Virus genome (UHGV): UHGV-0207821
From: a virus
Length of the DNA: 9,917 nt
Reading direction: 5' to 3' (one strand)
In this document: positions 74 to 9,917 of the stretch, in pieces
How positions within the stretch are numbered: the stretch's first letter is position 1
Layout: each line of letters opens with the position of its first letter
Made by a program: the position numbers and the translations under genes
The notes under the pieces: generated by a model
Told to the model about the DNA's origin: nothing
What the model saw: the letters and a program-made list of their open reading frames with translations, nothing else
Database searches by the model: none

Positions 74-616
74 TTACTCGCCTTTGTTCTGTAGCAACTT
101 CTCAGGCGCGCTTCCGGTAGTTTCCATCAGGTAATCAGCCAGTATCTGTGGCAGGTTTTCGTCAAGTCTTGCACATGCGTTACATGCTTTGGCTATTTCC
201 CTTTTTAGTTCATCCAGCATATACGGCCTTATATCGGGAAAGCGCCTTTGCATTGTGAGCGGGAGGCTGTCCATGATTGATGAAATCTGACTCGCTAGTT
301 TTGAAATCGCGTAGATGCAAAACTTTGTATCAATCACCTCGCCGCGTTCGCGCTCGTTTTTAAGTTCCTGCGCTTCCGCCTGGGCCGTCATTAATCTGAT
401 TCTTACGCGTAAAAGTTCATCATCATCAATCTCGCCTTTGTCGTTTGTAAGCTGGTTAATTGCATTGTTAACCCTATTGTCTATCACGCTGGCAACATCA
501 TAAAACGCCTCACGGCCTTTACGTTCAACGGGAGTCACTCCCCACTTGTCGAATGCTGTAGCACTTACCCGGCAGCTTTGCGCCATGGTTTTTTTGTTCA
601 TCAGGTGCGATTTCAT
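74..616 (-). CDS. Terminase small subunit, lambda gpNu1-like (possible packaging-redirecting TerS homolog)
   Basis: Translation aligns along its full length with lambda Nu1 as I recall it (e.g. RLMTAQAEAQELKNERERGEVIDTKFC...MDSLPLTMQRRFPDI vs lambda RLTRAQADAQELKNARDSAEVVETAFC...LDGLPLSVQRRFPEL). Start chosen at ATG 616 because of the upstream GGGGA Shine-Dalgarno; ATG 601 and GTG 628 are alternatives. Sits directly downstream of the cos site, as in lambda. Confidence 0.85.
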   Translation of the reverse strand: MKSHLMNKKTMAQSCRVSATAFDKWGVTPVERKGREAFYDVASVIDNRVNNAINQLTNDKGEIDDDELLRVRIRLMTAQAEAQELKNERERGEVIDTKFCIYAISKLASQISSIMDSLPLTMQRRFPDIRPYMLDELKREIAKACNACARLDENLPQILADYLMETTGSAPEKLLQNKGE

Positions 617-817
617 CAATATCCCCACTTAGTTAAGGTTTCAGGTTGGTGTGTTGGTGTTATCTTTCCCTTTTTATTCATAGAGATAGAGCGAAAAACA
701 AAACCACCACCACCAACCCGAAAAGGCTCATAAATAGCGAAAATCCGCAAGGTCGCCGCCCCGTAGCCTGCCGGATCGCCGGAAAGGACCCGCCAGCCAG
801 AACGGGCCCTAATTTCA
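617..817 (-). other. Lambda-type cos site: cosN 12-mer at 750-761 plus cosB-like repeats
   Basis: Plus-strand AGGTCGCCGCCC at 750-761 is the exact reverse complement of the lambda cohesive end GGGCGGCGACCT. The minus-strand sequence just after it (TGCGGATTTTCGCTATTTATG) closely matches lambda CGCGGGTTTTCGCTATTTATG (R3 region, from memory). AGCGAAAA repeats at 690-697 and 736-743; inverted CACCAAC-rich blocks at 644-660 and 704-719 flank an AT-rich core. Confidence 0.75.
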
Positions 818-1201
818 TCAACCAATCAGCTTATAGCGACCATCCCGTGCATTGCGACGTACACGCTCAATCTTGAGGCATAGCGCCGCATCTGGCTTTT
901 TGGGGACAGGTACGCGGCAATATTCAGAAGCTCGAGGAATATTGTTTATCCAGTCGATCACTTCACTTAAATACCAGGCTTTACGCCCTTCCGTAACCTG
1001 TACGCGTTCGGGGAACTCTCCACGAGCCTCAAGGTTTAGCAATGTGCGACGGCTAAGGGTAGTAAGTTCCATCACCTGATTCATATCAACAAGGCGTTCA
1101 CTTAAACGCATTTTGTCAGCAATAGCCTTTAATTCCTCTACTGCTGGATCCGGATACATCATTTCGGCAATTGGCTTAAGGTCATTGTAATGATTCTGCA
1201 T
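818..1201 (-). CDS. AlpA/MerR-like helix-turn-helix DNA-binding protein, function unknown
   Basis: Central motif MELTTLSRRTLLNLEARGEFPERVQVTEGRKAWYLSEVIDWINN has the AlpA/excisionase-type HTH pattern. ATG at 1201 is preceded by AGGGGGA. Lies between the gpD-like gene and cos. Confidence 0.7.
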   Translation of the reverse strand: MQNHYNDLKPIAEMMYPDPAVEELKAIADKMRLSERLVDMNQVMELTTLSRRTLLNLEARGEFPERVQVTEGRKAWYLSEVIDWINNIPRASEYCRVPVPKKPDAALCLKIERVRRNARDGRYKLIG

Positions 1202-1212
1202 TGTATCCCCCT

Positions 1213-1554
1213 TTACACACGAGCCAGCGGCTGAACAGAAATACCTGAGCCAACAAACGCGGCAACCTTTGCCGACAGTTCTCTTACAGACTCAGGCCAG
1301 TTCAGAGCATCAACATTTAAAACACCTGTCTTATAAACCTGTGCCTGTGTTTTTTTCGCTGTGTCGATTTGTACAGCGGAAACATAAACCGCTTTGCCTG
1401 CGCTCGTTCCATCCCATACCACTAGCGCACCAGTTGCATCTTCCTGCATCAGTGGCGTAAACGCAGGTATTACCCCTTTATTGGCTGAAAATATCCCCAG
1501 CGTAGTAACCAGTGCTTCAGTGCCAGACATGAGTTCAGTGTAATGAGTAGCCAT
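1213..1554 (-). CDS. Head decoration protein, lambda gpD-like
   Basis: 113 aa; conserved blocks shared with lambda gpD from memory (TPLM, VVWDGT, YKTG, WPE, AAFVGSGISV vs TPLM, VAWDGT, YKSG, WPE, TAFAGTAISIV). SD AGGGGGAG precedes ATG 1554. Confidence 0.85.
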   Translation of the reverse strand: MATHYTELMSGTEALVTTLGIFSANKGVIPAFTPLMQEDATGALVVWDGTSAGKAVYVSAVQIDTAKKTQAQVYKTGVLNVDALNWPESVRELSAKVAAFVGSGISVQPLARV

Positions 1555-1563
1555 TGCTCCCCC

Positions 1564-2610
1564 TTAGCCAATGCGAACGGTAACAAAACGATTGATGCGG
1601 GCCGGTATTGGCTGTGGTGCAGAGTGCGTTTGTACGTACTCAATAGCCGGATCACCAGGCACAATATAGTTTTTCGGTGCAAGTTCGGCTTTAGTCAGCC
1701 CCATTCGGGTTAGCTCCGGATCCTGAATACCGCCATAGGCGACAATCCCCTGAAGAGCCGTATTGCCAAGCACCATCAAATCAGGATCAAGGAAATGTTT
1801 TTCAGTTCCGTCCTCGTCGGTATAACGTCCGCTGTAAACAACAATCGCAACATCGCCCATATACCCTTTAAAACTCACCGAATCACCAAGGTCTTTAAGG
1901 GCCGTTTCCAGTTCGGAATTAGAACCACGGCGGGTATCCAGAGCCTCTTTTATCGCTCTGAATGAACGGTATTTCTTCCATACATTACCGCCCATAATGA
2001 TGATATTAGTGACGCCCTCACTAAATTCTGCGTAGCTCTCAATATCATCATTTGGATCAAAAGTTTCTTTATCCTTACCTGACCACTCAGCACCGCCAGA
2101 CTGCGTGATAATATTTTGTGGTTTTATATTCCAGTCCAGTTCATAACGTTCAATACCATCGCCCTCAATGATATTTTTCCCCGTTGTGATTGCCTGAACA
2201 GCAAGCCATTCAATACGTGCACGTATAGCTTTAGCCTGATTTACAATCGCCTGTTTAACTTTAATATTACGCGCCCCAAAAGCATTGTATTGTTCAGGTG
2301 ATACACCAGCAGGGCGCACAGCTAACTTATTTGGATCAATGCTGCTTTTCGGTTTCATATAGCCAGGGCGAATTATTTTTGATTCGTATCCCTCATCTCG
2401 TGAAACTTTACTGCCCACCATAGGAGAGCAAAACGCCGCGATCGGGATATTTGGATCGTCGATCGTATCAAGAATAATGTCTCTCGATTCAAAGATTACC
2501 GAGCGAGTGAAAAACAAACTGGTAAACAACGCATTTAATTTTTTTTGCACATCTTCAGCATTAGCCACCTGCACAAGCTGTGTAGGCGAATATAAATCAA
2601 CCATACTCAT
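1564..2610 (-). CDS. Major capsid protein, lambda gpE-like (HK97 fold)
   Basis: Long collinear similarity to lambda gpE as recalled (MSMVDLYSPTQL vs MSMYTTAQL; DTRRGSNSELETALKDLG and GDVAIVVYSG essentially identical). Start is the ATG at 2610 (MSMV...) preceded by AAAGAGGA, not the ORF-track start at 2691. Confidence 0.9.
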   Translation of the reverse strand: MSMVDLYSPTQLVQVANAEDVQKKLNALFTSLFFTRSVIFESRDIILDTIDDPNIPIAAFCSPMVGSKVSRDEGYESKIIRPGYMKPKSSIDPNKLAVRPAGVSPEQYNAFGARNIKVKQAIVNQAKAIRARIEWLAVQAITTGKNIIEGDGIERYELDWNIKPQNIITQSGGAEWSGKDKETFDPNDDIESYAEFSEGVTNIIIMGGNVWKKYRSFRAIKEALDTRRGSNSELETALKDLGDSVSFKGYMGDVAIVVYSGRYTDEDGTEKHFLDPDLMVLGNTALQGIVAYGGIQDPELTRMGLTKAELAPKNYIVPGDPAIEYVQTHSAPQPIPARINRFVTVRIG

Positions 2611-2777
2611 CCTCTTTACATTCATTACAAATAATTGTGAATATATTCTATTACCGATGTCTGCTATGCGAATACATGCAAACAAGTGCAATGTTGTATA
2701 AAATATGCCGTGACAACTTCAGTGCTGATAATTCGTGTTAATGTATTTACTTCCTTTGGTCGGGATTTATGTAGCAT

Positions 2778-2810
2778 GCCGGAAAATCTATTTTTTTCCG
2801 GCATCTTTTT
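2778..2810 (+). terminator. GC hairpin with T-run in the ssb to capsid intergenic region
   Basis: GCCGGAAAA (2778-2786) pairs with TTTTCCGGC (2794-2802), followed by ATCTTTTTGTTT. The T-run is on the plus strand, so it is a weaker fit as terminator of the minus-strand ssb operon. Confidence 0.3.
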
Positions 2811-2821
2811 GTTTGCAGAAT

Positions 2822-3244
2822 TTAAAACGGTATATTATCGCCGTACGGATCATCATTCCCCGACTGTTGTTTTGCCCTGTTCAGTGCGTCAGTGGCCTGC
2901 CCCTGCTGACCTTTTTTGCCGCCCGGTCGCGCCGTTCGCGCACTGATTACGCTGTCTGCGATAACCTGCCAGCCCCGCCGCGTTTCGCCGTTCTGGCCTG
3001 TCCACTGGCTTACCTGCATGTTACCCGCCACGCTCAGGAGTTCACCCTTGCGGTGCTTTGCCAGTGCTTCGGCCTGTCTGCCAAACGCCAGGACGGATAA
3101 CCACATCGTCGCCGTTCCGTCATCTGCCTGGCTGCACGGAAGTGGGACCGCCATACTCGCCATCGTCATTTGTGTACCCTTGCTGGTGGTCTTTAACTGC
3201 GGGTCAGCCACCAGCCGCCCGTAAGCCGCTATCTGTGCTGTCAT
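2822..3244 (-). CDS. ssb: Single-stranded DNA-binding protein (SSB), short form
   Basis: OB-fold region resembles E. coli SSB (QIAAYGRLVADPQLK vs KVILVGNLGQDPEVR; WLSVLAFGRQAEALA vs WHRVVLFGKLAEVAS). Gly/Gln-rich linker and acidic C-terminal tip DDPYGDNIPF (cf. DFDDDIPF). ATGA start/stop overlap with the upstream gene. Confidence 0.85.
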   Translation of the reverse strand: MTAQIAAYGRLVADPQLKTTSKGTQMTMASMAVPLPCSQADDGTATMWLSVLAFGRQAEALAKHRKGELLSVAGNMQVSQWTGQNGETRRGWQVIADSVISARTARPGGKKGQQGQATDALNRAKQQSGNDDPYGDNIPF

Positions 3245-3492: not shown

Positions 3493-3503
3493 TCCCCACC
3501 ACT

Positions 3504-3694
3504 CCCCACTTTTTCGCCTCACTTTTTAAGCTCCCCACATGATTTCCAACCTTGTTTTTTTGTGATTCTAATATGTTGTTTTTCAATGTGTTTTTTATTC
3601 CTCACTTTTGAGCCTATATACAGATTGAAAAGTGAGGGGCGCGGTTGCTTTTTGTTCAGTTCCTGCTATCCCCTCACTTTTGCGCCTCACTTTT
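3504..3694. repeat. Iteron array with AT-rich core, candidate replication origin
   Basis: CCTCACTTTT at 3517-3526, 3600-3609, 3672-3681, 3685-3694; variant CCCCACTTTT at 3504-3513; inverted copy AAAAGTGAGG at 3628-3637 forming a palindrome with the 3600 copy. T-rich stretch 3551-3599. Immediately 3' of the replication helicase gene. Confidence 0.55.
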
Positions 3695-5109
3695 TACAGT
3701 GGGCGCACATCATCACCGTCAATAGCGATAACGCCGTCTCTTTCCAGCTTGTACAGCCAGCGCCGGAAGTTTTTCATCTCATACCCCAGCTTTTTCATAT
3801 CATCGCGCAACAACGGGATAGTGCATTTATCGCCGCGCTGTGTGCGTGACCGGATACAGCCCCATAGTGCGGCGTGATTCTCCGTCTTGTTTCCGGCCTC
3901 CTCGATGCGCTCCAGTTCAACGGGTGGGCGCGGCTTATCCACAACCACCAGCGACGTGATTAACTCCTTGTCAGCGTCGGTAAAAAGCTCCACCACACGT
4001 AAATCATATGCAGCCTCTTTCAGTTCCTCCGCGTCCTTCATTTTGGTGCAGGAGATAACCAGGGCCTCACTGTCCGCGCCTTCGCGGCGGATCCGGTACT
4101 CAGCGTCCAGAGATGCACGAAATGCACTGGAACCACGCGCCCCTTTTGTTTCATCCTTGCCGGAATGGTGAACCACCAGCACCGTGGCCCCTGTGCGTCG
4201 TTTCAGTTCGTCACATCCACGGATAAACGCCCCCATATCCCGCGCGTCATTTTCATCATTACCGCCAAAGCAACGCGCCAGCGTATCCAGAATAATCATG
4301 CGTACCGGTTTACCCGTTTCCCGTTCAACCTGGCGGGATGCGATAACCATTTCATCAACATCAAACTGGGCTGCAGGAAAAATCGGGCGGTTTACCAGGT
4401 ACAGATTTTTCACCCGTTCATCATTAACGATTTCCCATGCCTTGATACGGCGGGGGACACCAATGCCACCTTCACCGACAACATACATCACCGAACCATG
4501 CGCCACCCTGCGACCTCCCCAGTGGCGACCCGTGGCAACATGACACGCCCAGGAACACGCGAGGAACGATTTATAGGAACCGCTCGCGCCGTATGTGCTG
4601 CACAATGAATTAGCCGGAATCACGCCCTTAACGACATAATCAAGCTGTGTGTCGTACCCTGCAGATCCAATGCTCATTGGTAGCGTGGTTTTTCGCTGGC
4701 TGTATTGCTCGTCAGTAAGTATTTCCCCGCGCTCTGCCTGTTCGCGGATCCGTTGCAGGTAGTCGTGCCAGTTCTCCAGCTTCTGACTGTGCATTCCCTC
4801 AGGGTAATAATTCGCATCCCGTACACCTGCCGCCGCCAGCTTTTGCCCGATGGCATTAATATTTGACGGCTTGATGTGGCCTGCCTTGTACAGTCGGACA
4901 CAATAGCGACCATCGTCGATAATTTTCAGGCCTGCCAGTTCGTCAAGCTGGCTGTCTCCCAGCCATACAGGCGGAACATTGTCGCCAGCAAGTCGCCCGT
5001 CCTGCTCCTGCCATTGTTTCGCGTGCGCCCAGGCATCACTACCCGCAAAAATAATGACTTCGGTCATTTTGTCGTAAGGCTGTTTTTTTAAGTTCGGTGC
5101 GCTTTTCAT
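3694..5109 (-). CDS. Replication initiation helicase, RepA/DnaB-like RecA-fold ATPase with C-terminal winged-helix domain
   Basis: 471 aa. Walker A-like YGASGSYKS, Walker B-like RMIILDT, then VLVVHHSGKD, typical of RepA-like (AAA_25) helicases. C-terminal LGYEMKNFRRWLYKLERDGVIAIDGDD looks winged-helix. SD AGGGG before ATG 5109; ATGA overlap with the upstream ORF. Confidence 0.8.
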   Translation of the reverse strand: MKSAPNLKKQPYDKMTEVIIFAGSDAWAHAKQWQEQDGRLAGDNVPPVWLGDSQLDELAGLKIIDDGRYCVRLYKAGHIKPSNINAIGQKLAAAGVRDANYYPEGMHSQKLENWHDYLQRIREQAERGEILTDEQYSQRKTTLPMSIGSAGYDTQLDYVVKGVIPANSLCSTYGASGSYKSFLACSWACHVATGRHWGGRRVAHGSVMYVVGEGGIGVPRRIKAWEIVNDERVKNLYLVNRPIFPAAQFDVDEMVIASRQVERETGKPVRMIILDTLARCFGGNDENDARDMGAFIRGCDELKRRTGATVLVVHHSGKDETKGARGSSAFRASLDAEYRIRREGADSEALVISCTKMKDAEELKEAAYDLRVVELFTDADKELITSLVVVDKPRPPVELERIEEAGNKTENHAALWGCIRSRTQRGDKCTIPLLRDDMKKLGYEMKNFRRWLYKLERDGVIAIDGDDVRPL

Positions 5110-6103: not shown

Positions 6104-6461
6104 GGTGCACCTCCTGGCGAATACGGGCGGCGAATACCATCACGCAGCCAGCCGGGGATTGCTGACGTGCTTCCTGTTCGCTGGTGGCCTCGATGTGAAT
6201 CACGCGCGGTTGTGCCGTGCTCAGGGCGATAAAACGCCAGATAAAATTGTTCTCGCATTTCTGAATAAACAGCGTGTTTTCTTCGCGCCCTTTCCATGTT
6301 GCCGAGATATAGCCCATGTCATTGAGCATCTCGCAGGCATCCACCAGCGTATCAGCGGCTACGTGTACAGTGTTTTTACCGTCAGCCATGCAATCACGGT
6401 GCACCGCCAGGAAGGTGTATATAAATTTAGGGTGAGTTTGGGTATGCTGTGTTCCAGCCAT
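6093..6461 (-). CDS. Hypothetical protein, first gene of the leftward operon
   Basis: 122 aa from ATG 6461 (MAGTQHTQTHPKF...), SD GAGGT about 8 nt upstream. Normal amino-acid composition, unlike the junk-like translation further upstream in the same frame. Confidence 0.5.
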   Translation of the reverse strand: MAGTQHTQTHPKFIYTFLAVHRDCMADGKNTVHVAADTLVDACEMLNDMGYISATWKGREENTLFIQKCENNFIWRFIALSTAQPRVIHIEATSEQEARQQSPAGCVMVFAARIRQEVHHVQ

Positions 6462-6669
6462 AATCGTTACCTCATTTAACGGTTTGGTTAGAAGCCCGGT
6501 TAGTGTTCGCGCACTGCCGGGTTTCGTCGTTTTTATGAATCGCTCATTGTGAGATACATAGCGACCCCCATGTGAGATACACATTATATTGTGGTGATAT
6601 ACATTGCAAGTGTTTTTATATCTCACTTTTGTGTATAGTGATATACACATAACAAATTGGTGATTAACT
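6462..6669. promoter_or_regulatory. Divergent regulatory region with operator-like repeats
   Basis: Four same-orientation copies of GTGA(G/T)ATACA at 6549-6558, 6572-6581, 6593-6602, 6639-6648; inverted partial TATCTCAC at 6619-6626; palindrome GTGTATA-GTGA-TATACAC at 6631-6650 just upstream of the RHH gene. Lies between divergent gene starts at 6461 and 6670. Confidence 0.55.
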
Positions 6670-6972
6670 ATGTCTGTATACAAAAATGCAAAATCGCAAA
6701 TGACAACGATCAGGGTTCCCCACGATGTTATGGAGGGCATGGAATCCGTAAAACTGGACGGCGAAAGCAACGCCGGATTCATAGTAACCGCCATGCGCGG
6801 TGAGATCGCTCGCCGGCAGGCAGAAGGAAGAGGAGAAAATCCCTTGGTTTCTTCGCTCGATGCACTGGCGCAGGTGGAAAAAATCGGTGTCAAAGCAGCC
6901 GAGGAGATCGGGCAACTCGTCACCGTCGCGCGTGAAGAACTCCAGCGGCGCAAGGCCAAAGAACCAGAGTAA
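6670..6972 (+). CDS. Ribbon-helix-helix (CopG/Arc-like) transcriptional regulator, candidate element repressor
   Basis: N-terminal MTTIRVPHDVMEGMESVKLDGESNAGFIVTAMRGEIARRQ fits the RHH strand-helix-G-x-S-x-N-helix pattern. SD GGTGA 6 nt before ATG 6670. Charged, helical composition. Confidence 0.6.
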   Translation: MSVYKNAKSQMTTIRVPHDVMEGMESVKLDGESNAGFIVTAMRGEIARRQAEGRGENPLVSSLDALAQVEKIGVKAAEEIGQLVTVAREELQRRKAKEPE

Positions 6973-7029
6973 TCACCATCAGCGCCGTGGTGTAAGGTAT
7001 TACGGCGCATTGCTATGCAGGACAACACA

Positions 7030-7203
7030 ATGACCGATAAAGAATTGACCAAAACATTATCACCGGCACGGAAAAGACGGCGCAGAAAGATAGAGCATGA
7101 ATCAGAAAGATTCGCGCCATGTGCTTTTGCTCTTGAGAAATTCCTTAAAGAGCACAGGAAAAAGCTCTCGTTGCAAACCTTGGAACGAACCAAATCTGAC
7201 TGA
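7030..7203 (+). CDS. Small basic protein, hypothetical
   Basis: 57 aa from ATG 7030 (SD AGGA 7 nt upstream); very basic (RKRRRRK). Co-oriented with the RHH gene and followed by a terminator. ATG 7015 is an alternative start. Confidence 0.4.
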   Translation: MTDKELTKTLSPARKRRRRKIEHESERFAPCAFALEKFLKEHRKKLSLQTLERTKSD

Positions 7204-7676
7204 TCACATTGCCCACCAGCCGCAAATGTGGCATTGTTGGTGATGCTCATGCGTTGGGGATAACGTGTAGCTTGTGTCGAGGGGCCACCGTAGCGGGTGG
7301 CCTTTGTTTTGCCTGTTATCCGGCAATTGTGGCGCTTCGCCACACGGTTGATATAATCCCACTGCTCAGATTCATTTTTTGCGCAGTAGGTTAATTGTTC
7401 ACAAAGGCGCTCCGGCAACGGGGCGCTTTTTGTTTTTATTAGTTTGTAGAAACCTGACTCAGAGATAATGCTCATATTCTGATTGCCGTCAGGGGGGTAA
7501 GTTAAATTTACTCCCTTTTCATCAAGCATCTGCAACGCTCTGGCGTTAATAATATTGGTTTCACTCCCGCCAATAAGGCCGGAAATAACCGGAATAATTT
7601 CAGCGAAATTTTGCAGATTCTGGTTTTCAGGCCGAACGAAGCCCCGCCCCTGTACAGGCGTATATCCAGTATTCAT
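7204..7676 (-). CDS. Possible Bro-N/antirepressor-like protein; 3' end undefined because the frame has no stop until 6093
   Basis: N-terminal ~125 aa from ATG 7676 look protein-like; NMSIISESGFYKLIKTKSAP resembles the Bro-N/antirepressor signature (weak, from memory). Beyond about 7300 the translation turns Cys/Ser-rich and runs antisense through the RHH operon and the operator region. The 7204 end is arbitrary. Confidence 0.3.
7283..7310 (+). terminator. Rho-independent terminator of the plus-strand regulator operon
   Basis: GGCCACC (7283-7289), loop GTAGCG, GGTGGCC (7296-7302), then TTTGTTTT (7303-7310). Confidence 0.55.
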
Positions 7677-7728
7677 GGTTAAATCTCTGTATTAGTGGAT
7701 GGGTGGCGGCTGTGTGCCGCCAGCCTGA

Positions 7729-7917: not shown

Positions 7918-8285
7918 AATTCCCCCTTTGTTGTTTCTTAAAGAGTCATTGGGTGGATTATTGGGTTGGGTTGTGTCGGATTGTGTCAGGGTGTTTATGG
8001 AATGGCAAACACTGGTGGCGGTCATTTTACAGAAGTGGGGGTAGTGAGAATAAAAATCCTTTTAATTCATTATGATGTAAAGGCATAAAATTCTGTTTTT
8101 ACGCCTTTTTTACATGTTTTTAAGAGTGATTCGCCAATGTACAAAAAGCCAGTAAAACGACTGAAAATCAACTTTTTAGGGTGTCAGTCAGATGATAATC
8201 AAGTTTGTTCCAGATTGTTCGCCGTTGTTCGTCGTGGTGTCTCGTTGTTTCACGTTGTGTCCGTTCTAAAAAATCGCAAAAAAAA

Positions 8286-9533
8286 TTATATTTCTCTGGC
8301 TATTGGCAGTGTGGTTACGTTTTCGTGAGTGCCTGCCAGTATCTCTAACCGCTCTGTCCACATGTCCAGCGCATTACGTTTCGCATCGAGATAACGGGAG
8401 TGGTTATAGACTCGCTGCATCCCTGGCATCTGGTGAGCGGTGAGTTGTTCGACAATATGCGGATCCACGCCTAAATCGTTCAGCATCGTGGTAAACGTGC
8501 GCCGTATATCGTGTAGTGACCAGTGCGGATGGTTTAATTTTTTGTGCATGAATCTGCCGTATTGCGACACACTGGCTTCCTGTTTCAGTTCCCCGAGTAA
8601 TAGCCCTGTGTGTCTGTTCTGCTCCACCAGCTGCGTGACGAACGGTAAAATGCTTTCCGGTATTGGCCTGAATATGGCGACCTTCGTTTTGCTGTGCTCT
8701 TTCGGTACTGTCCAGAGCATTTCCTTAAAATCCCACTCCCTGATCTCCGATAATCTCAGTTCTCCGGTTCGGCAGCCGAACACAATCAGGAGGCGGATTA
8801 GTGCGCTGTAGTAGGGCGGGAATATTTTTTTATCCAGCGCCTGTAATAATTCGCCAAGTTCTTTGTTGCTCAGCACGCGTTCGCTTATGCCTGGTTTTTT
8901 GCCAACGTCCACCACGTTAAGATCATCCAGAACGTTACTGACTGCGTAGCGACGTTTACGGCAGAACTTAAGCGCCTGTTTACACGCCTGCATCATGTGA
9001 CCAGACGTTACAGGGGATTTTTTGCGTATCCGGTCAAAACAGGCCAGCCAGTGACGTAACTCGCATTTATCCAGTGGCATATTGCCAATATGCTGTATGA
9101 CGTGATTATTCAGGCGGCTTTTCAGGCATACGTAATCGACACGGTTTTCCTTTACGTGCATTTCCAGCCAGTAGCTGATCGCATCACCCACCGTTACCGG
9201 CTTTAGTGCTTCCTGTATGGAGTAATTAAGCTCATGGCGTGGATTTTTTCCTTCTGCCAGCCATGCGCGACACTGTGCCGCTTTTTCCCTGGCTGCTTTC
9301 AGGCTCAGATCAGGATAATTTCCCAGCTTCAGGCGTTCCGGTGATACCTGGCGTCCAGCTCCTGCTCTGTAGGTGAAATACCAGGTTAACAAGCCGCTGG
9401 TGGAATGCCTGACGCTCAGGTTTCCACCGTCATTAAGAAATGTGGTTTTTGGGGCTGGTGTGCCGTTGATTTTTCTTAGCTGTGTATCGCTCAGTTTGTT
9501 AAGTGCTCTGCTCATAATTTTGAATCCGGTCAT
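8286..9533 (-). CDS. int: Tyrosine site-specific integrase, P4-family type
   Basis: N-terminal LSDTQLRKI...DGGNLSVRHS...LLTWYFTYR typical of P4-family integrases; C-terminal catalytic region with HDIRRTF and VYNHSRY (tyrosine nucleophile). ATG at 9533; the ORF track starts at GTG 9536, and ATG 9515 is also possible. Confidence 0.9.
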   Translation of the reverse strand: MTGFKIMSRALNKLSDTQLRKINGTPAPKTTFLNDGGNLSVRHSTSGLLTWYFTYRAGAGRQVSPERLKLGNYPDLSLKAAREKAAQCRAWLAEGKNPRHELNYSIQEALKPVTVGDAISYWLEMHVKENRVDYVCLKSRLNNHVIQHIGNMPLDKCELRHWLACFDRIRKKSPVTSGHMMQACKQALKFCRKRRYAVSNVLDDLNVVDVGKKPGISERVLSNKELGELLQALDKKIFPPYYSALIRLLIVFGCRTGELRLSEIREWDFKEMLWTVPKEHSKTKVAIFRPIPESILPFVTQLVEQNRHTGLLLGELKQEASVSQYGRFMHKKLNHPHWSLHDIRRTFTTMLNDLGVDPHIVEQLTAHQMPGMQRVYNHSRYLDAKRNALDMWTERLEILAGTHENVTTLPIAREI

Positions 9534-9538
9534 CACAA

Positions 9539-9779: not shown

Positions 9780-9873
9780 ACCGGCGCAGAGGAGACAATG
9801 CCGGATTTAAGACGCGGATGCACTGCTGTGTGTACTGTAGAGTCTGGCGGATGTCGACAGACTCTATTTTTTT
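9780..9873 (+). ncRNA. mcaS: About 94-nt sRNA with four GGA motifs, McaS(IsrA)-like
   Basis: Promoter-to-terminator unit with no ORF. 5' stem-loop CCGGC...GCCGG; GGA motifs in single-stranded or loop contexts (GAGGAGA, CCGGATT, GCGGATG twice); terminal hairpin plus U7. Sequence matches my recollection of E. coli McaS, a CsrA-binding sRNA; not verifiable here. Confidence 0.55.
9838..9873 (+). terminator. Rho-independent terminator of the sRNA
   Basis: TAGAGTCTG (9838-9846) pairs with CAGACTCTA (9858-9866); 11-nt loop containing GGA; followed by TTTTTTT (9867-9873). Confidence 0.7.
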
Positions 9874-9917
9874 ATGCAGTTTTAACTTTGCAGATAGCCG
9901 CATTCTCGCCGGAATTG

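Follow-up and report, generated by a model that had tools for sequence, protein, structure and literature searches.

We propose that the intergenic region between ssb and the major capsid gene of this satellite controls a portable late (capsid) module, at whose 5' edge it lies, in an island of the EcCICFT073 type. It would hold an activated promoter reading into the capsid operon and, on the opposite strand, a terminator that ends a small RNA. With its three parts (the control region of a portable module, the activated promoter, and the opposite-strand terminator and small RNA) judged jointly, we place this explanation slightly above an even chance. The region is functionally important, and a preliminary description of this DNA had rightly suspected that a regulatory boundary and a late promoter lie there; the role that it had given to the hairpin in the gap is not supported.

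Organization of the island

Open reading frames, Pfam matches and NCBI annotation identify the window (the whole stretch of 9,917 nucleotides analysed here) as a Gram-negative PICI of the EcCICFT073 type, with all substantial genes on the minus strand (Table 1). It possesses an integrase, AlpA, a replication gene with an adjacent origin, a late zone with capsid or packaging homologues, genes in a common orientation and a length of about 10 kb. Escherichia coli TW10590 holds a copy that is 99.7% identical, whose annotation at NCBI matches the window and which is flanked by smrA and abgR. The island occupies a non-phage attachment site, also characteristic of PICIs. The window further contains the host small RNA McaS at 9780–9875.

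The resemblance to EcCICFT073-type islands extends from the integrase, AlpA, the replication gene with adjacent iterons and ssb through to the late zone, which in both cases comprises a lambda E-like capsid gene, a D-like decoration gene, Nu1/Rpp-like genes and a cos-like site, all on one coding strand and within about 10 kb. The capsid protein of the window is 55% identical to that of the L003-type module, the type present in EcCICFT073. The two modules differ in that the one in the window has an internal AlpA-like regulator (HTH2), where the L003-type module has instead a leading ORF of 68 amino acids. PHROG 2790, which is matched by HTH2, carries the label "excisionase and transcriptional regulator".

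Gram-negative PICIs are divided into four zones, namely Integration, Bro, Replication and Late (Mageeney et al. 2023, PMC10111431), and the order of genes in EcCICFT073-type islands is that of the window (Fillol-Salom et al. 2018, PMC6092414). Since the gene order fits both, the gap after ssb can be placed at the junction of the Replication and Late zones. The preliminary description had suspected an early/late boundary at this point, and the division that we find between a replication zone and a capsid and packaging zone bears this out, in agreement with PMC10111431.

The gap itself is real. It begins after the ssb stop at 2822 and measures 211 nt with the capsid start that was first assumed (ATG 2610), or 217 nt with ATG 2604. 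We prefer the latter since a GAGG (2611–2614) lies 6 nt upstream of it, it is the choice made by NCBI and the capsid starts of other genera align with it. GC content falls from 0.60 within ssb to 0.36 within the gap. The observation that most other junctions are tight also holds, 8 of 13 lying between -11 and +11 nt; the gap is one of five long ones (201, 217, 201, 1427 and 368 nt). Of 5426 complete E. coli genomes, 366 carry a conserved copy of the entire region.

Table 1. Genes of the window, in order along the minus strand, and sequence elements of the region between ssb and the capsid gene
Feature	Position	Strand	Remarks
Integrase	8286-9536	-	
AlpA	7729-7917/8025	-	
Zone poor in genes			1.4 kb; next after AlpA in gene order
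Icd-like gene and small ORFs	between gene-poor zone and helicase	-	
RepA-family helicase	3694-5109	-	
Small ORF	between RepA-family helicase and ssb	-	
ssb	2822-3244	-	final gene of replication zone; Pfam SSB
Intergenic ssb/capsid region	2605-2821		boundary of replication and late zones; ORFs, Pfam, NCBI annotation
Major capsid gene	1564-2604	-	lambda gpE family; leads late module; Pfam Phage_cap_E, E = 6.5e-41; PHROG 29
Head decoration gene	1213-1554	-	lambda gpD family; Pfam HDPD, E = 4.6e-15
HTH2	818-1201	-	AlpA/excisionase-family winged-helix regulator; Pfam Phage_AlpA; PHROG 2790, E = 1.8e-48
Nu1-like small terminase or Rpp-like gene	74-628	-	
T-rich tail CTTTTTGTTTGC	2805-2816	+	3' of hairpin; A-run 5' of hairpin when read on - strand
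Hairpin	2776-2804	+	read as stem of + strand intrinsic terminator; 11-bp arms, 7-nt loop
CU-rich CUUCCUUU (2750-2757) and 4-bp hairpin	2750-2765	+	UUCC 2751-2754/GGGA 2762-2765; weak evidence
Proposed small RNA, ~100 nt	~2711-2814	+	5' end predicted from -10-like TAAAAT; 3' end at terminator
Candidate -10 TAAAAT	2699-2704	+	weak candidate promoter spans 2676-2704
Phased direct repeats R0-R3	2666-2701	-	proposed activator-binding sites; four copies, 10-bp phase
R0 TTATAC	2696-2701	-	degenerate repeat, in phase
R1 TTGCAC	2686-2691	-	
R2 TTGCAT	2676-2681	-	
R3 TTCGCAT	2666-2672	-	
-10 hexamer TAGAAT	2645-2650	-	capsid-operon promoter; conserved, relatives TGnTAnnAT
Predicted capsid mRNA 5' leader, 34 nt	2605-2638	-	start near A2638 predicted from -10; Shine-Dalgarno GAGG 2611-2614

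Linkage of the gap to the capsid module

The hairpin moves with the capsid module and not with ssb. A second E. coli family, 86% identical to the window over 2560–2842, has the same hairpin, promoter and capsid gene, together with another ssb allele (77% identical), another primase and another integrase. In two contigs with an upstream neighbour other than ssb, homology sets in immediately 5' of the A-run. The ssb 3' end, for its part, is shared by hundreds of E. coli islands that run into other late modules. Outside E. coli, the trio of capsid, decoration and HTH2 genes was found in genomes of Kluyvera, Superficieibacter, Cedecea and Kosakonia (capsid proteins 79–86% identical to that of the window in these four genome copies) and in about 20 further viral contigs.

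EcCICFT073 and the L003-type modules have the canonical coding-strand terminator of the upstream gene, then a second hairpin that bears a run of A6-7 on its 5' side, and then the late promoter. Late modules of several types thus open with a terminator that turns its strong face away from the late genes. A weak coding-strand terminator face is wholly absent from the hairpin of the window. We also considered whether the latter might be an inverted copy of the terminator of another module, L110; BLAST gave only an 11-mer (E = 0.11) and the idea was dropped.

Promoter of the capsid operon

Phylogenetic footprinting of the coding strand, using alignments of 6 and then 19 sequences, supports the presence in the gap of a conserved sigma-70 promoter for the capsid operon. 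The T, A, A and T of its -10 hexamer are invariant in the 19 aligned sequences and agree with a sigma-70 -10 element, which has A at position 2 and T at position 6. A TG one base upstream of the hexamer is present in the relatives and in E. coli family B (TGATAGCAT), and absent in the window (TAATAGAAT). Family B thus has an extended -10 with a weaker hexamer, and family A, to which the window belongs, a hexamer with 5 of 6 matches; loss of the TG is accompanied by a better hexamer, so that the difference between the two E. coli families is a compensating one. In all of the sequences the -35 region is a poor one, and in E. coli its position is taken by R3 (TTCGCA, 2667–2672), 16 nt upstream of the -10.

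Upstream of the -10 lie the phased repeats, the GCA cores of which are exactly 10 bp apart. Their T, T, G and A are invariant across the 19 sequences, which represent at least six genera, and this is the sole cluster of TTGCAY-type repeats in the window. For variation within E. coli, 80 copies of the module in IMG/VR were reduced to 43 distinct upstream sequences, and these to 29 distinct antisense segments. Among the 43 variants changes occur in the spacers (TTGT, TTGG, TCGG, TTGA), and the R1 and R2 cores are spared. The number of repeats varies among the relatives, with a true fourth TTGCAC at the R0 position in one of them (L106) and two repeats only in two others (L101 and L103). The distance from R3 to the -10 is 10 bp shorter in E. 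coli than in other genera; since this is one helical turn, the repeats stay on the same face of the helix.

A weak -35 combined with phased upstream repeats is the anatomy of an activator-dependent promoter. Such a promoter would drive the genes for the capsid protein, the decoration protein and the AlpA-like regulator, and probably the Nu1-like gene. The repeats, at about -30 to -60 on one face of the helix, could be bound head to tail by a winged-helix protein, which would then recruit RNA polymerase. The preliminary description had expected either a helper-activated late promoter or an antitermination target in the gap; a conserved promoter of the activator type, with its repeats and -10, is indeed present, and it is the hairpin as an antitermination target that has to be given up.

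Two other classes of promoter were looked for. The late promoters of P2 and P4 have a TGT-N12-ACA dyad near -55 that is bound by the zinc-finger proteins Ogr and Delta; no such dyad was found in 2640–2720, where there are direct repeats instead. A sigma-54 promoter (TGGCAC-N5-TTGCA, with GG at -24 and GC at -12) would fit in its spacing, and the upstream element, TTGCAC, is without the GG in all orthologues.

Polarity of the boundary hairpin

The hairpin had originally been described as a GC-rich stem of 9 bp. It is real, and stronger than this: its arms (2776–2786 and 2794–2804) form 11 perfect pairs, of which only 5 are G-C. The predicted free energy is -16.6 kcal/mol on the plus strand and -16.2 on the minus strand, with z-scores of -4.9 and -5.5, respectively, and none of 200 shuffled sequences folds equally well.

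The two strands differ in what follows the stem. On the plus strand, which is antisense to both flanking genes, the stem ATGCCGGAAAATCTATTTTTTTCCGGCAT is followed by the T-run CTTTTTGTTT (2805–2814), that is, a stem-loop and then a U-tract as in an intrinsic terminator, and a terminator scan calls the site on this strand only. On the coding strand the same stable, GC-containing stem has AAACAAAAAG on its 5' side and GCUACAUAAAU on its 3' side, the latter not being a U-tract. The hairpin core GCCGGAAAA/TTTTCCGGC is retained in the 29 distinct E. coli variants, every one of which has a plus-strand T-run of 5–8 T, and in none has the coding-strand tail acquired a T-run. From this arrangement the hairpin is probably an intrinsic terminator for the plus strand and not for transcription from ssb to the capsid gene.

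The relatives in other genera have the same layout upstream of the capsid gene and a different hairpin, AAAAAGCGGGCC-loop-GGCCCGCTTTT. At the equivalent position the hairpins differ in sequence and are maintained by compensatory changes, as the pairs that vary on both sides and the covariation score given below show. In the 9 nt after the GC core the relatives have a mean of 6.8 U on the antisense strand, the coding strand having 3.8, and the antisense count is the higher one in 19 of 19, which are not 19 independent lineages.

Between this terminator and the promoter, the relatives outside E. coli have a second stem-loop, which on the antisense strand reads GUUAUUU-CCUCC-AAAUAAC. Its CCUCC loop is fixed and its stem covaries, as in CUGUCGC/GCGACAG (L006) and CUGUUAC/GUAACAG (L008), with more variants in L104, L106 and L107. 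A covariance model built from 13 relatives, with six divergent members held out, detects all six of the latter with E-values from 1e-9 to 1e-5, and each of these matches falls on the antisense strand of the capsid gene. In the model-guided alignment of the 19 sequences, where fitting to the model inflates the figures somewhat, 92.1% of cells pair (89.3% if read on the coding strand), and 7 of 17 pairs vary on both sides, which is equalled by 1 of 500 shuffles. The covariation score in this alignment is 0.233, compared with 0.149 +/- 0.012 in the shuffles, none of the 500 reaching it.

Wobble pairs help to distinguish the strands. If the non-terminal pairs of the two helices are taken alone, cells that are G-U on the antisense strand and would be A-C mismatches on the coding strand number 24, with 1 cell showing the reverse. 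The bias at the helix ends runs the opposite way (19 versus 5), for which reason the overall difference between the strands in paired cells is small. This is moderate evidence that the functional RNA in the relatives would be the antisense one. The model from the relatives fails to detect the E. coli version, and homology between the internal parts of the E. coli RNA and those of other genera is not established.

A candidate divergent small RNA

The polarity of the terminator and the covarying stem-loop on the antisense strand suggest a small RNA gene, and the hairpin most likely serves as the 3' end of such an RNA. We tentatively propose, at odds somewhat short of even, that the late module carries a hitherto undescribed gene of this kind, about 100–130 nt long, which would be transcribed divergently from the repeat region and end at the hairpin. 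This gene and the capsid promoter may use the same phased activator sites. In the relatives the RNA would display the CCUCC loop, which is anti-Shine-Dalgarno-like, on its covarying stem; in E. coli it would have a CU-rich stretch, CUUCCUUU, which occupies the position of the relatives' stem-loop. The small hairpin at this site in E. coli has UUCC and UCUC variants that pair only as U-G wobbles on the plus strand. The internal fold of the putative E. coli RNA is not significant (z = -1.8).

The promoter of the proposed RNA is the weakest link in this argument. The -35 of the plus-strand candidate matches at 3 of 6 positions. The candidate -10 of the relatives is TAAAGT, TAGAGT or TAAACT, and in the nAnnnT hexamer at this position the A and the final T are invariant in all of them. 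Most of the conserved bases of this hexamer overlap R0, so their conservation can partly be explained without any promoter.

Several searches for a match or a partner were negative. A search of Rfam 15 gave no match at E <= 1 in 2611–2821 or in the equivalent region of eight relatives. Among the small plus-strand ORFs between the repeats and the hairpin, none terminates before the hairpin and none is conserved. A duplex-energy search with the putative RNA against all translation-initiation regions of the window found nothing above background, the best RNA-RNA duplex (-28.3 kcal/mol) falling at about the 5th percentile. In the relatives the CCUCC stem-loop matches the capsid ribosome-binding site at 8 of 9 positions; as the two do not covary (L006), this match was taken as chance.

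The same hairpin could be a passive element of the module boundary without a dedicated small RNA, serving either as a bidirectional insulator against stray antisense transcription or as a 3' stabiliser of processed ssb mRNA, with the relatives' second stem-loop being incidental or acting on read-through RNA. All three types of late module open with an A-run and then a hairpin, and the antisense promoter is a weak one. A degenerate fourth repeat is one reading of the conserved box upstream of R1, given the true TTGCAC at this place in L106, but the invariant T at -7 of the antisense hexamer falls outside the repeat unit. An insulator, moreover, presupposes something to block, and an antisense polarity in 19 of 19 relatives implies regular transcription of the plus strand; the second stem-loop covaries around a fixed CCUCC/GGAGG loop, which points to a functional RNA. 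On this evidence a passive element is unlikely.

If the divergent RNA exists, it might be a riboregulator of the translation of satellite or helper late genes, or alternatively might block, as an antisense RNA, transcription that reads through from the replication genes. Its terminator would also shield the replication genes from divergent transcription.

Termination and antitermination on the coding strand

The account that the preliminary description had given of the hairpin is a different one: on the coding strand it would terminate early transcription from ssb, and antitermination or a late activator supplied by the helper would then permit expression of the capsid gene. The sibling modules L003, L110, L112 and EcCICFT073 do possess canonical coding-strand terminators directly after the upstream gene, and in the relatives outside E. 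coli 2–5 U follow the hairpin on the coding strand, so that partial bidirectional termination is possible there. In the window, no element resembling an intrinsic terminator was found on the coding strand between ssb and the capsid gene. The U-tract of the hairpin lies on the opposite strand, as does the longer one in all 19 relatives, and without a U-tract in the coding-strand tail GCUACAUAAAU, ssb transcription is probably not stopped at the hairpin by intrinsic termination.

The antitermination part of this account fares no better. The hairpin sits upstream of the conserved promoter and outside the leader of the capsid mRNA, and it therefore cannot gate capsid transcripts that begin at the promoter. 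An arrangement like lambda pR'-tR' is absent from the window, and a target for Q-type antitermination was rejected because the terminator lies about 100 nt upstream of the -10 and not in a transcribed leader. Nothing suggests Rho-dependent polarity either, the RNA of the gap being A-rich with a C/G ratio of about 1.2 and having no obvious Rho entry site. Altogether we regard this account, termination of ssb transcripts together with control by the helper, as improbable.

Candidate regulators of the late promoter

The most likely candidate for binding the repeats, though at odds somewhat below even, is HTH2, which is encoded by the satellite and not by the helper. The alternatives are AlpA, a protein of the helper and a host factor. 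Winged-helix proteins of the excisionase/AlpA family, to which HTH2 belongs, line up head to tail on repeats spaced by about one turn of the helix. In E. coli as in four other genera, HTH2 is always found together with the repeats and with the genes for the capsid and decoration proteins. The repeats hardly vary between genera, and neither does the helix-turn-helix region of HTH2. In Cedecea, the sole lineage with TTGTAC repeats, the putative recognition helix of HTH2 shows an R-to-G change, a single case. Encoded within the operon, HTH2 would form a positive feedback loop once the island is induced.

As for AlpA, the protein of EcCICFT073 activates its own promoter (PMC6092414). The recognition helix of the island's AlpA is unlike that of HTH2, and it has repeats of its own, 10-bp-phased and of the GAACAA type, upstream of alpA. 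AlpA alleles that are only 54% identical stand beside nearly identical TTGCAY repeats, which argues against AlpA as the protein that binds them. The link between HTH2 and the repeats is in turn weakened by L003/EcCICFT073-type modules, which are without HTH2 and have promoter motifs of the TTGCA type (palindromic). When IMG/VR was scanned with the exact triple TTGCAY motif, at least 120 loci matched, of which only 5 are from the module family of the window and 4 have HTH2; the motif is non-specific, and the scan is uninformative on the link.

A helper protein could act on the repeats if these were CII boxes of the form TTGC-N6-TTGC, in which case the CII of a lambdoid helper might activate the capsid promoter or the divergent RNA. 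CII activates the lambda promoters pRE, pI and paQ. The window sequence TTGCACTTGTTTGCA (2677–2691) resembles the lambda pRE box, TTGCGTTTGTTTGCA, and it contains a direct repeat of the CII type (TTGCACTTGTTTGC, 2678–2691). In lambda the two boxes flank the -35 and the proximal TTGC lies about 13 nt from the -10. Here the proximal TTGC of E. coli is 17 nt away from the -10 and that of other genera about 27 nt, and the repeats number three or four rather than two. Helpers of this class of PICI are lambdoid (PMC6092414), and the helper-like prophage of CFT073 encodes a regulator of the CII family; with the spacing and the number of repeats against it, control by CII appears very unlikely.

That the repeats are replication iterons or a packaging site, and not promoter elements, is scarcely credible: 10-bp-spaced direct repeats are typical of iterons and many unrelated viral contigs contain the exact motif, in some cases as longer arrays, but the island has origin-like iterons (CCTCACTTTT, at least 6 copies) at about 3500–3700 beside the helicase gene and a cos-like sequence upstream of the Nu1-like gene, away from the repeats (the segment 715–793 shares 86% identity with the sequence that immediately precedes Nu1 in a lambdoid phage), and the TTGCAY repeats are unchanged while the replication genes differ (RepA helicase, D5-type primase, DUF927) and hold a fixed helical phase to the conserved -10.

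Comparison with other satellites and phages

Late control in P4 depends upon two divergent promoters, Psid and PLL, which are activated by Delta, itself encoded in the sid operon. The arrangement proposed here would share with P4 a regulated late promoter for capsid-related genes in a satellite, an activator encoded inside its own operon and transcription that diverges from one control region. Unlike the P4 and P2 systems, the window has direct repeats in a 10-bp phase and a candidate activator of the AlpA family, a winged-helix protein.

In its putative binding sites the proposed system resembles that of lambda Xis, which binds the phased direct repeats X1-X1.5-X2. Xis, the AlpA of EcCICFT073 and HTH2 are small winged-helix proteins associated with repeats about one turn apart, and such repeats are also found at the alpA gene of the island. 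The putative role of HTH2 differs from theirs, being activation of the late operon and not excision.

Small RNAs that end at a terminator are known from phages and satellites, namely the OOP RNA of lambda and the CI and C4 RNAs of P4 and P1, respectively. The putative RNA of the island would resemble these in being a short non-coding transcript, opposite in direction to its neighbours, that is ended by a GC-rich stem and a U-tract, and in having a conserved CU-rich apical loop. It differs from them in that neither its sequence nor its structure matches any Rfam family, C4 included, and the RNA proposed for the window would not overlap the capsid mRNA.

In published work AlpA is the only master activator identified, and Gram-negative PICIs are described as unidirectionally transcribed. 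When papers on EcCICFT073, HE-PICIs, EcCIMP1 and synthetic PICIs were searched by term, neither a late-zone promoter nor a small RNA turned up, and for islands of the EcCICFT073 type no boundary terminator either.

Implications for Gram-negative PICIs

Islands of this kind are common, the module of the window being present in about 7% of complete E. coli genomes. In annotating them, the boundary hairpin should not be taken for the terminator of ssb. A defined and conserved late promoter with candidate operators and a candidate regulator provides handles on the control of late expression, by which autonomous, AlpA-driven and helper-driven expression can be told apart experimentally. The divergent small RNA, if it proves to be true, would give the late zone of Gram-negative PICIs its first riboregulator and would contradict the description of these islands as transcribed in one direction; it may represent a new layer of interference between satellite and helper.

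Probable packaging and replication sites

The gap that precedes the Nu1-like gene (629-817) contains a 13-nt inverted repeat with arms at 639-651 and 711-723. Nucleotides 715-793 show 86% identity to sequence of the lambdoid phage YDC107_1 that lies directly upstream of its Nu1 gene, and the gap is probably a cos site of the helper type. Immediately downstream of the gene for the RepA-family helicase lies a cluster of CCTCACTTTT repeats (3493-3693), present in at least six copies and in both orientations, which is probably the replication origin of the island.

The alpA and int region

Three TTGTTCGNCG-type repeats, with spacings of 10 and 20 bp and reading GAACAA on the - strand, were found at 8215-8258, upstream of alpA and directly downstream of int. 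They parallel the phased repeats of the capsid promoter of this element, and are candidate AlpA sites or integrase arm-type sites. Between the Icd-like gene and alpA extends a 1.4 kb zone with few genes (6302-7728); this may be an immunity ("Bro") zone with regulatory RNAs. A full-length McaS/IsrA small RNA (Rfam RF00115, 118 bits) occupies 9780-9875 on the + strand. This is host flank and lies outside the island, which is inserted between abgR/McaS on one side and smrA on the other.

Features of the gene-poor zone and of the EcCICFT073 late module
Feature	Location	Strand	Remarks
SymR-like RNA match	6456-6528	+	sub-threshold: 35.7 bits, gathering score 61
YlcI/YnfO-family ORF	6670-6972	+	inside gene-poor zone
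Strong terminator-like hairpin	7280-7305	+	inside gene-poor zone
Strong terminator-like hairpin	7403-7430	+	inside gene-poor zone
EcCICFT073 terminator	L114 231-248	coding	after PerC stop codon
EcCICFT073 second hairpin	within L114 150-480		between terminator and promoter; A7 run on 5' side
EcCICFT073 late-module promoter	within L114 150-480		palindrome ATTGCTCAAAATGCAAT and perfect TATAAT
EcCICFT073 14-bp hairpin with T-run	L114 404-435		overlaps -10 and leader

Late modules of related islands

The late module of EcCICFT073, the model island of E. coli CFT073 (locus L114, 150-480), differs from that of the window. Here the PerC stop codon is followed in order by the coding-strand terminator, the second hairpin, the promoter and the 14-bp hairpin, the last of which may serve as operator or attenuator. 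The first late gene of sibling late modules is a coding-strand ORF of 68 amino acids (L110, 1963-2136; L003, 5379-5585), belonging to PHROG 3255, which has no assigned function. The NCBI annotation of L110 and L111 places an opposite-strand ORF over this stretch, which looks like a miscall.

The second E. coli version of the capsid module, the 86%-identity family, has a copy in strain AREA_C483 (L002, 1322-2110) which adjoins a prophage major capsid gene lacking its N-terminus. Head and tail genes come after this shortened gene. By this arrangement the AREA_C483 copy is a helper-embedded PICI, a type of island that PMC10111431 describes.
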